Shown here: in pieces, positions 1 through 3,000 of the stretch
How positions within the stretch are numbered: position 1 is the first letter of the stretch
Layout of the letters: each line of letters begins with the position of its first letter
Made by a program: the position numbers
IMG/VR virus record: IMGVR_UViG_2778261570_000021
Coordinates: 1 to 4,397 of that record
Length of the DNA: 4,397 nt
Origin: a virus
Lineage: Duplodnaviria; Heunggongvirae; Uroviricota; Caudoviricetes
Reading direction: 5' to 3' (one strand)

Positions 1-3000
1 CCGGAAAAATGATCACGCTGGATAATCCACCAATCCCGGGGAAACAATCGCTGGCAAAGAGGACGTCAATTCCTCTGGTAAGTCAGGTTGAGTTTTCGAC
101 ATCATCATGGCGACGGGCGGTTCTGTCTCTTGAAGAACACCATAAAGCCTGGTTGCTGTGGTGTTACAGTGGCAGCATTTGCTGGGAACATCAGATTGCG
201 ATAACTCAGTGGGCGTGGAATGAATTTAACGCGCAATCTGGTACCAGAAAAATTGCGGAGAAAACACGGGAACGCCTGAAAAAATTAATCTGGCTGGCGG
301 TGCAGGATGTGAAGAGCGAGCTGGCTGGGAGTGAGACTTATGAATATCAGGAACTGGCTGAATTGATGGGGGTTGCTAAATCCACATGGACAGAGACATA
401 CCGACCTCGCTGGGAGATTATGCGTGACTGTGTTACAGGCCTGGACAAAGATGCGCTTATATCGGCAATGCACTTACGTTCACAACAAAAGGTATCTAAT
501 ACCAGGTTAAATATTGCAAAACCGAACTGAAAAGTGTATTTTGCGCATAAATCTGATATTTTGCCGATTTTTTACGCGATGGCAAAGTAAGCAAATCCCG
601 CCGCCGAGCGGGTTTTTTGTTGGCTTAACAGGTTATAATGTATAGTGCGAAACTGCCTGTTCAGCAGAATCATTTTGTTTGTAGTGGAGTTCACAAGTCG
701 TCATTATCAGGCAAAGAGATTTATGGTATTAAAGTATCAGCCGTCTGTTCGTTCTGTTTTAATGTGTGATTTTCGGGGAATGGTTGTTCCGGAAATAGTC
801 AAGGTCAGGCCAGTGGTGGTCGTGTCCAGAAACAGGCACAACAATCAATTGGTAACAGTGGTACCAATAAGCACTACTGAACCGCTCCCTCGCAGAGATT
901 GCCATCATGAGTTATCAGAAAACCCCATACCTGGTAATGAGCATATTACTTGCTGGGTAAAATGTGACATGTTGATGACGGTTTCATTGAGCCGACTGGA
1001 TCGCATAAAAACCAGAACCTGGGAGGGACGAAATTATATTGTTCCTATGATTGCGGAAGATGAGTTTGAGAATATTAAACGGGCGGTATTGCACGGGATA
1101 GGGATGGCTTATCTGTATCGATAATCGTTTTCGATTATCGAATTCGATATGAATTTATATTGACACACATAGTGTGTTGGCTGATACTGTCGCTGTACCC
1201 TGATGGGACTTGTGAGACTTCCGAACAGGAAGCCAGGAGTAGCGATGAGGTGATGACAAGCCTGCTGCCCCTGTGTAAAAGGCACCTTAATGGTGCCTTT
1301 GTCGTTTTTATCAAAAGATCCCGCCACTGAGCGGGTTTTTTTGTGCCCTAAAAACGGCACAGGACGTTAAACGCGCTGGTGGTTGCGAATACGGGTCTTT
1401 CAGCTTGCTGGCTTTTTCGACAAGAGGTATTGGTATGTCACGTTAACCAGAAAAGGGAAAAGACATGCTAAAACAGCAGGATATGACTGAAACCGCCAGA
1501 GTGGTGTTTAATGAATTAAGCGTCACTGAACCGGCGACCGTCGGGGAAATTGCGCAGAATACTTACCTTTCACGTGAACGCTGCCAGTTAATACTGACCC
1601 AGCTTGTTATGGCGGGTCTGGCAGATTATCAGTTCGGTTGTTACAGACGCCTTCCGCAGTGAAGGCTTTTTTATTTGTGGTAATGGGCGGCTGGTGGGTG
1701 TTAGCGGCACCTGCCAGCCATCTGCTCATGCGTTGGGGTCACAAGCAAACCTCAGGCCCATCTGCTTTGCGCAAAAGCAGTATGAGCCTATCAGAGAAGT
1801 GCTTATTGATCTATGGCTAATACTGTAAAAATATCCAGTTGTGAGTTAATCAACGCTGATTGCCTGGAATTTATCCAGACCTTACCGGAAAACTCTGTCG
1901 ATCTGATAGTCACAGACCCGCCGTATTTTAAAGTGAAGCCCGAGGGCTGGGATAACCAGTGGAAGGGCGACGATGATTACCTGAAATGGCTGGATCAGTG
2001 TCTGGTGCAATTCTGGCGGGTACTGAAACCTGCCGGAAGTCTCTACCTGTTCTGTGGTCATCGCCTGGCATCTGATATCGAAATCATGATGCGTGAACGC
2101 TTTAATGTGCTGAACCACATTATCTGGGCGAAGCCGTCCGGACGCTGGAACGGATGCAACAAGGAAAGCCTGCGGGCGTATTTCCCGGCAACAGAACGCA
2201 TTCTGTTTGCAGAACATTATCAGGGGCCATACCAGCCCAAAAATGACGGCTATGCGGCAAAGGGGCGCGAGCTTAAACAGTGCGTCATGGCCCCGCTGAT
2301 TTCTTACTTTCGTGATGCGCGTGAATCACTGGGAATAACGTCAAAACAGATAGCGGAAGCCACCGGAAAGAAAAACATGGCTTCGCACTGGTTTGGTACC
2401 AGTCAGTGGCAATTACCGAACGAGGGTGATTACAACAAATTGCAGGCGTTGTTTGCGCGTGTTGCGGCAGAAAAACATCAGCGCGGGGAACTGGAAAAGC
2501 CACACCACCAGCTGGTCAGCACATACAGTGAACTGAACCGGCAATATGCCAGCCTGCTGGAAGAGTACAAATCTTTGCGGCGTTATTTTTCCGTATCGGC
2601 AGCCGTTCCTTATACGGATGTCTGGACGCATAAACCCGTGCAGTTTTATCCGGGCAAACATCCCTGTGAAAAACCGGCGGGTATGTTGCGGCAGATAATT
2701 GAGGCCAGCAGCCGTCCTGGTGATTTGGTTGCCGACTTTTTTATGGGGTCAGGCTCCACAGTAAAGGCTGCATTGTCGCTGGAGCGCCGTGCGATAGGTG
2801 TGGAGCTGGAGGCTGTACGGTTTAACCAGACAGTGAAAGAGATAAATGCGCTGGTGGTTAATCAGGCAGATAAGTGTTACCCGGAAAAATAACTAATTCC
2901 GATATGGTATACCTGATTATTGTTAGTTTGCTTATCTTTTAGTATCTTCCTGCTCAGCAGGATCCCCCTGCAACGACGATTGTATGATGAATACCTTTTA

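Follow-up and report, generated by a model that had tools for sequence, protein, structure and literature searches.

What is encoded between positions 1160 and 1342 of a 4,397-nucleotide (nt) stretch of caudoviral DNA (IMG/VR record IMGVR_UViG_2778261570_000021, positions 1 to 4,397; hereafter the window), just downstream of a gene for a PemK/MazF-like toxin? The first-pass annotation proposed a small RNA (sRNA) with its own promoter, an operator-like palindrome and tandem terminators, which might regulate host genes or serve as an antitoxin for the adjacent toxin. Our analysis indicates that 1160–1309 is probably an autonomous sRNA gene that forms a two-gene RNA-antitoxin cassette with the toxin gene at 723–1124. 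By comparative genomics only, the sRNA is most likely the toxin's RNA antitoxin; its transcription, the toxicity of the protein, neutralization by the RNA and the mode of neutralization are what we infer from these comparisons. Homologous loci compared with the window carry labels of the form L001.

A conserved structured RNA

The predicted sRNA folds into four helices (Table 1), with a minimum free energy of −58 kcal/mol (z = −5.7). Pattern scans of IMG/VR yielded 26 distinct variants, 25 of which were aligned with MAFFT and folded with RNAalifold. This alignment of 25 sequences is not fitted to a model, and 98.1% of its cells are paired, with seven double-change pairs, against 40%–55% in slid controls. 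Covariance model R1 gathered 77 further copies, 58 of them distinct. Covariance analysis over homologous loci had been suggested as a check. In the 58 distinct R1 homologues it finds compensatory change at 22 of 28 pairs; double changes fill 320 cells, and 97.3% of all cells are paired, versus 37%–50% when slid. The R1 alignment is fitted to the model and hence biased toward structure, but the effect far exceeds the bias, and the unfitted alignment agrees. This covariation indicates that 1195–1309 is a genuine structured non-coding RNA gene.

Three unpaired motifs, CUUG(U/C)GAGAC, GAUGACAAG and UUGUC, hardly vary between enterobacteria and high-GC soil alpha- and beta-proteobacteria, a pattern expected when a conserved partner recognizes the RNA or when tertiary structure constrains it. 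A pseudoknot between GACAA of the apical loop and UUGUC of the 3′ tail is suggested by its single variable pair, which is GC in 51 cases, AU in two (AACAA/UUGUU, in L215 and L218), GU in one and mismatched in one. An alternative pseudoknot might pair CUUGU of the single-stranded segment with ACAAG of the loop, although on direct reading its U-to-C variants are uncompensated.

Searches of Rfam over 1160–1342 returned no match at E ≤ 1, IpeX, IsrK, the pemK motif and BjrC68 included. BjrC68 had been considered for distant members of the family, which reach 24.9 bits against a cut-off of 39; the match takes in a generic hairpin plus terminator without the GAUGACAAG loop, and was dismissed. The earlier comparison with IpeX is borne out for its position, the slot 3′ of the antiterminator gene Q, the late promoter PR′ and its terminator tR′ being indeed a moron slot, and is otherwise unsupported, the Rfam result being empty.

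An independent promoter and no conserved reading frame

The sRNA promoter is the top sigma-70 match of the window (score 10/12). As a motif alone it is not significant, three promoter-like sites being found in the window versus 4.8 expected from shuffles; its significance comes from a position that is conserved across the RNA family. Of 62 distinct homologous loci, 48 have TTGnnn-17-nATAnT 6 nt 5′ of the conserved GU(A/U)CCC RNA start, and in most others TATATA stands at the same spot. The −35 element falls inside the final toxin codons in many lineages, and the promoter is kept in the toxin-less locus L145, where the RNA lies 3′ of an unrelated gene plus that gene's terminator. The TTGACA-17-GATACT promoter first proposed is therefore real: it is present, the best in the window and conserved in position.

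The two other control elements of the original description fare differently. The palindrome ACACA-TAG-TGTGT at 1165–1177, read directly from the sequence, had been taken for a repressor operator. Several 5+5 inverted repeats are expected by chance in 4.4 kb, and homologues that share the promoter have unrelated spacers, for example tatgttaattgttgcct and tcatagctgcgatagtc. Because the spacer sequence is not conserved, the palindrome lacks comparative support, and we abandon the operator. Both hairpins of the supposed tandem terminators are present, but they are not one unit: only the first belongs to the conserved RNA, and the second, a copy of tR′, is replaced by unrelated terminators in other lineages.

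It is extremely unlikely that the interval instead encodes a small protein, whether from the 25-amino-acid (aa) open reading frame (ORF) at 1253–1330 or from a minus-strand ORF at 1135–1314, or is simply the 3′ untranslated region (UTR) of the toxin mRNA with its terminator. Both ORFs exist, 54 of the 58 homologues have some open minus-strand frame, and PGAP has called a "hypothetical protein" there in some genomes. However, a 1-nt deletion in L004 breaks the 25-codon frame, L014 retains just 11 codons of it, conservation does not extend to the start codons, and substitutions in the helices are compensatory. Within the family, the spacing of invariant RNA anchors runs through every value mod 3, so no conserved reading frame is possible, and none was found on either strand in the 58 distinct homologues. 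A pure 3′UTR is contradicted by the RNA's own promoter and by its divergent or upstream placement in some lineages. The first-pass judgement that ORF 1253–1330 is non-coding thus holds, and covariation, a conserved promoter and the lack of a conserved ORF together uphold a small RNA gene that is independent, having both a promoter and a terminator of its own.

The RNA is linked to the toxin gene

Gene linkage that is close to obligate gives strong support to the suggestion that the RNA is an antitoxin for the neighboring toxin. With R1, the RNA is found 65–75 nt past the toxin stop in 19 of 19 IMG/VR loci with a toxin of at least 60% identity, and L001, L003, L005 and L006 are arranged as in the window. 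It lies right after the toxin in all seven loci of three distant toxins (Rhodocyclaceae, other high-GC lineages and Yersinia ruckeri; 89–123 bits). Among metagenomic toxin loci R1 detects it in 77 of 80, the three misses being contigs that end at the toxin. All testable toxin loci carry the RNA, down to ∼50% toxin identity and across alpha-, beta- and gamma-proteobacteria.

The RNA is mostly 3′ of the toxin on the same strand; in 74 of 77 loci it follows the toxin and has its own promoter. Upstream placement is seen in three copies with divergent orientation and in L169, where the strands agree and the order, uniquely, is RNA, terminator, toxin. Since the position of the RNA relative to the toxin varies, the linked unit is a gene and not a 3′UTR. 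No protein antitoxin gene, and no MazE/PemI-like gene, is present in the window, and no conserved protein partner was found across the 80 toxin loci; in 46 of these no upstream ORF of at least 45 aa abuts the toxin, and, apart from a recurrent ORF of ∼190 aa described below, the remainder carry heterogeneous, unrelated genes.

Decay of the locus starts with the toxin. A premature stop interrupts the gene at codon 19 in L044 (2023–2424), L147 has a degenerate form of it, and the L004 type has lost it through a deletion that joins window position 675 to 1170 and removes the −35 element as well. The sRNA is intact in all three, and so is its promoter in L044 and L147. Loss of the toxin ahead of the RNA is a decay pattern typical of toxin-antitoxin (TA) loci.

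Positions 1170–1319 are present in only 37 of 5,426 complete E. coli genomes, and the GenBank phage collection contains no DNA match to 1125–1319. A shortened relative of the RNA lies beside the E. coli K-12 yifN pseudogene, in the ppiC-yifN spacer (L170 1400–1515, minus strand), where TTGACA-17-GATAAT is followed by CCCCUUGAGGGACCUGCGAAG plus a terminator; its match to R1 is weak (15 bits, E = 9e-4), and the spacer bears no annotation.

The toxin belongs to the MazF superfamily

The intact toxin gene encodes a YifN-type protein that matches Pfam PF02452 (PemK_toxin) with E = 5.6e-14 and 52.7 bits, above the gathering cut-off of 23.1, which places it in the superfamily. There is no sequence-level match in the PDB. 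The top Foldseek matches of an AlphaFold2 model (predicted local distance difference test score, 87) are MazF structures, with template modeling scores of 0.67–0.8 and a probability of 1.00, and hhalign sets R29-P30 on MazF R29-P30 and S50/T51 on MazF T52/T53. The modeled structure and alignment indicate that the toxin has the MazF fold and that its catalytic-site residues are kept. Identical E. coli copies carry a PemK/MazF family toxin annotation. The family numbers 1,108 proteins at E ≤ 1e-5 under the JGI name "YifN (PemK superfamily)"; PADLOC and NCBIfam have no model for it.

Proposed neutralization at the protein or the mRNA level

How might the RNA restrain this protein? We propose that in the lysogen the sRNA would be made constitutively from its own near-consensus sigma-70 promoter, running for ∼115 nt from G1195 to the hairpin and UUGUCGUUUUU tail, with the tR′ copy as a back-up stop. 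It would adopt the four-helix fold, the apical loop GAUGACAA probably docking on the 3′ UUGUC tail. The toxin would then be kept harmless most likely because the protein directly recognizes the folded RNA, either in a type III-like ribonucleoprotein or through substrate-mimic inhibition. An extra layer is plausible in the E. coli lineage, where two unpaired sRNA segments could pair with 18 contiguous nt of the 5′UTR by the Shine-Dalgarno (SD) sequence and repress translation.

That second layer could also be the whole of the mechanism, with a trans-encoded antisense sRNA that pairs with the toxin 5′UTR by the ribosome-binding site, blocks translation or triggers decay, and never contacts the protein. 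We regard this type I-like alternative as rather unlikely. In the window the two pairings, 9 + 9 bp, are contiguous on the toxin mRNA at −32 to −15. RNAduplex comparisons with shuffles give 7/500 and 2–3/200 for the single-stranded site and a weak 11–16/200 for the loop site. Perfect 11–12-nt loop sites occur at −21 to −26 in L021, L134, L135, L138, L188 and L198; the first four are related enterobacterial lineages with an 11-nt site at the same mRNA position, and independent lineages have loop sites at −22 to −26 in L198 (12 bp; −22), L193 (−25) and L188. Enzyme toxins controlled by an sRNA also exist, as in RalR/RalA of the rac prophage, where RalA reportedly pairs with the RalR toxin mRNA over 16 nt (PMC4041452). 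Most lineages, however, have no significant UTR site: the loop reaches significant complementarity in just 4 of 44 lineages, and the single-stranded region does so in 6 of 48. Complementarity to the coding sequence equals that of codon shuffles, the loop may be occupied by the 3′ tail, and the loop is invariant across classes of Proteobacteria, whereas antisense antitoxins usually co-vary with their target. Near-invariant unpaired motifs without family-wide mRNA complementarity thus favor neutralization at the protein level.

Other targets were considered and rejected. Antisense pairing of the loop with conserved toxin codons (CHH, VVIA) fits single lineages and is family-wide equal to synonymous-codon shuffles (−14.24 versus −14.25). 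Long duplexes from whole-sRNA RNAduplex runs against the mRNA were no better than shuffles, and these runs were replaced by single-motif tests. Mimicry of ribosomal RNA by the loop or single-stranded segment is marginal (16S 1031–1045, p ∼ 0.05; 16S 295–312, p ∼ 0.06), and no matches to the RNA motifs were found in 23S or the 16S 3′ end.

Toxin-less copies and evidence against an antitoxin

Several observations weigh against the favored reading. About half of the phage-borne variants in IMG/VR (∼12 of 26) have no adjacent toxin, so the RNA must also act in trans or serve another role. The pseudoknot is backed by one covariation event, and the rarity of UTR complementarity described above counts against the additional pairing layer. 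The repeat array of known protein-binding RNA antitoxins is absent from 1190–1312, as judged by Tandem Repeats Finder (TRF) and a repeat finder, and the RNA is a single unit in 58 of 58 homologues. In L168 a ribbon-helix-helix-like ORF (∼1000–1199) ends 2 nt before the toxin start, and ∼13 loci (for example L208, 629–1201) share an unannotated ORF of ∼190 aa that overlaps the toxin start; this ORF (ending ...DLDDEIPF) has no match in Pfam. From these two kinds of ORF, a protein antitoxin may exist in some lineages.

The orphan RNAs lie in Mu-like tail regions (L143, L145, L146), behind other Q genes (L136, L012, L013) and beside unrelated cargo (L014; L023, after a 327-aa protein plus DUF4325 pair). 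Their loops are intact, and they may be remnants or trans-acting anti-toxin decoys. Such copies, in several prophage contexts, together with the possible protein partners, are what favors a role for the RNA other than that of an antitoxin: a substrate or cofactor of the protein, or an independent trans regulator or anti-defense decoy that hitch-hikes with the toxin gene. For instance, the MazF-like protein might process or stabilize the RNA, or phage copies might neutralize host toxins of the family. We consider this quite improbable. Seen from the toxin, linkage to the RNA is near-obligate; a protein that has the MazF fold and keeps catalytic residues needs a neutralizer, and no other conserved one is present; and the toxin-first decay also fits an antitoxin. 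The decoy idea, moreover, does not conflict with antitoxin function and could hold alongside it.

The orphan in L014 lies between a Panacea-type pair and ParDE and is an 80% diverged copy. An unannotated ORF at 1953–2360 of that locus follows the Panacea-domain gene and is probably its toxin; a partial second copy of the sRNA terminator hairpin (GGTACCGTAATGGTGCCTTTGTCAT) comes next.

Relation to known toxin-antitoxin systems

MazF and PemK are textbook type II toxins, whose neutralization is seen as a protein-protein affair. The window toxin has the fold and catalytic-site residues of MazEF/PemIK toxins but no MazE/PemI-like gene beside it, nor any conserved protein partner in the 80 loci. 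Type III systems (ToxIN, CptIN, TenpIN) are frequent on phages and mobile elements; their toxin ToxN resembles Kid/MazF in fold and is bound by the pseudoknot ToxI, and a terminator lies between the two genes. Our locus resembles them in that an RNA, not a protein, accompanies an endoribonuclease-type toxin. It differs in three respects: the sRNA is a single structured gene of ∼115 nt, whereas type III antitoxins are tandem arrays of short direct repeats that the toxin processes; it carries a promoter of its own and is usually found 3′ of the toxin gene, whereas type III RNAs are upstream and co-transcribed; and the toxin is a PemK/MazF Pfam member, not ToxN, CptN or TenpN, and its binding of the RNA is a predicted one.

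Among type I systems SymE/SymR, in addition to RalR/RalA, has an enzyme toxin. The likeness to RalR/RalA lies in the prophage setting, a non-membrane toxin and a trans sRNA with short complementarity, here to 18 nt of 5′UTR. In contrast to type I, where the opposite is usual, RNA sequence and structure are conserved here and complementarity is not, and the toxin is a 133-aa soluble MazF-fold protein, not a small, usually hydrophobic peptide (RalR being one known exception). Phage PhiTE encodes pseudo-ToxI antitoxin mimics, which the toxin-less antitoxin-like RNA copies on phages resemble; that the orphans here counter host toxins is conjectural.

Compared in this way, the locus is a predicted RNA-controlled toxin module that departs from the known type I, II and III systems in defining features. 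A literature search on YifN, on PemK with an RNA antitoxin and on MazF with a structured RNA found no description, within a coverage that is incomplete and leaves prior work possible. More tentatively, and as less likely than not, we envisage an unrecognized TA class, widespread in Proteobacteria, in which a YifN MazF-fold endoribonuclease would be held by a single-copy, separately transcribed, pseudoknotted sRNA that binds it as a substrate or target mimic; prophages would carry such cassettes, possibly for abortive infection or addiction, along with orphan decoys, some of them wired into the constitutive late leader. If true, RNA-based toxin control would extend to the MazF family (a subfamily of >1,000 proteins at E ≤ 1e-5), thousands of "type II toxin" database entries without an antitoxin would be accounted for, and an unannotated RNA family, including the remnant by the K-12 yifN pseudogene, would gain a function. 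The compact two-gene system on lambdoid prophages would also bear on prophage maintenance, phage defense and counter-defense.

The cassette in its prophage setting

The window belongs to a lambdoid prophage, in which it is the late-control region. The 3′ part of Q occupies 9–530 (Pfam PF06323), and the full-length protein shares 77% identity with phage 82 Q. Lambda 6S RNA and StxS of Stx phages are PR′-tR′ terminated leaders, and our initial idea was that the sRNA unit is their counterpart, a late promoter PR′ with its terminated leader in which the palindrome serves as the Q-binding element. Like them, it is a short terminated transcript in the interval between Q and the lysis genes, downstream of Q, and in L012 and L013 the RNA truly is embedded in a late leader, ∼50 nt 3′ of a lambda-like PR′ (TTGATT..TAAATT-6-AACGATGGG) after an Antiterm-type Q. 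The published 82 pR′ has an extended −10-like pause element, GCC at +15–17 and a pause at +25 (PMC5001585). Positions 514–612 of the window match that description, which sets +1 at A549 and tR′ at 597–612, and the late promoter geometry of phage 434 is identical. Because this Q82-type PR′, pause and tR′ sit there, the promoter at 1160 is not the late promoter, and the leader idea was discarded; we rate it as highly improbable. The window sRNA has its own promoter 650 nt 3′ of the true PR′, the spacer palindrome is not conserved, and the RNA family, mainly toxin-linked, is partly chromosomal, the non-phage copies across Proteobacteria being always beside the toxin.

In L012 and L013 (2410–2650), a 273-aa Q (Pfam Antiterm) precedes the PR′ with the lambda pause sequence AACGATGGG, and the RNA, which has no separate promoter there, makes up the 3′ two-thirds of a late leader of ∼190 nt.

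Past tR′ the gene order is the PemK/MazF-like gene, the sRNA, a TrmB-like ORF, a DNA methylase, a tRNA-Arg and two holins. A 34-nt direct repeat (595–628 and 1318–1351, 82%) flanks the toxin and sRNA segment, and homology to phiP27 and Stx phages resumes exactly at 1320. From these borders the segment looks like a cassette inserted at tR′, with the repeat as an insertion or recombination scar.

Table 1. Positions of the toxin-sRNA cassette and of late-control elements in the window
Feature	Position	Strand	Details
sRNA	1195–1309	+	∼115 nt; predicted start G1195; covariance model R1, 138.7 bits
hp0	1198–1200/1205–1207	+	CCC/GGG in family alignment
Single-stranded segment ACUUGUGAGA	1208–1217	+	unpaired in fold
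hp1	1218–1222/1228–1232	+	helix
hp2	1234–1273	+	long; apical loop GAUGACAA (1252–1259) closed by GGU/GCC (family GGY/GCC)
t1 terminator hairpin of sRNA	1279–1299	+	then tail UUGUCGUUUUU, 1299–1309 (UUGUC, then U-run)
Candidate pseudoknot	1255–1259 with 1299–1303	+	GACAA with UUGUC; both motifs nearly invariant
sRNA promoter	1160–1188	+	−35 TTGACA 1160–1165; 17-nt spacer; −10 GATACT 1183–1188
First terminator (same hairpin as t1)	1278–1300	+	tail GTCGTTTTT; part of conserved RNA
Second terminator	hairpin 1320–1335; element 1320–1342	+	CCCGCCACTGAGCGGG + T7; phage tR′ copy; right edge of toxin-sRNA cassette
Toxin gene	723–1124	+	YifN-type PemK/MazF-fold protein, 133 aa, intact; Pfam PemK_toxin
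Toxin 5′UTR segment complementary to two unpaired sRNA parts	691–708	+	just 5′ of SD AAGAG 714–718
TCACAAGTC	691–699	+	pairs with sRNA single-stranded side 1207–1215, 9 bp
GTCATTATC	700–708	+	pairs with sRNA loop side 1249–1257, 9 bp including 2 G-U
Perfect 9-bp palindrome	1119–1140	.	CGATAATCG-tttt-CGATTATCG; spans toxin stop TAA 1122–1124; direct reading, TRF rows 1116–1149
Q82-type late promoter PR′	514–612	+	overlaps Q end; context only, outside the studied element
PR′ −35 and −10	514–519; 537–542	+	TTGCAA, 17 nt, TATTTT; predicted +1 = A549
Pause element TGaTATTTT	554–562	+	−10-like, extended TG; 14 nt 3′ of −10; then GCC 563–565
tR′ terminator	597–612	+	predicted terminated leader ∼70 nt; pause predicted near 573

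Minor features of the window and related loci

The 9-bp palindrome at the toxin stop has an inverted 4-nt loop (AAAA) in the closest E. coli copies and lacks one arm in IMG/VR variant L037. Directly 3′ of tR′ lie a perfect TATAAT (634–639) and TATAGT (641–646), with no usable −35, both also conserved in L004, which lacks the toxin. In the window they could drive the toxin mRNA. The toxin's own −10 in other lineages is TAAAAT or TAGAAT and is degenerate in the window (TAGTGG, 682–687). Rfam C4 antisense RNA (74.9–79.3 bits) is found near YifN-type toxin loci on two metagenomic contigs (L257, 1037–1222; L237, 840–927), with the C4 a1/b1 target sites also present in L257, which suggests P1/P7-like prophage contexts.

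Four terminator-like hairpins (3327, 3354, ∼3436 and 3466) lie within 3314–3496, between tRNA-Arg(UCU) at 3079–3155 and a holin gene. A 15-nt repeat of the T-arm region of the tRNA (3120–3134 and 3266–3280) hints at the trace of a decayed second tRNA.

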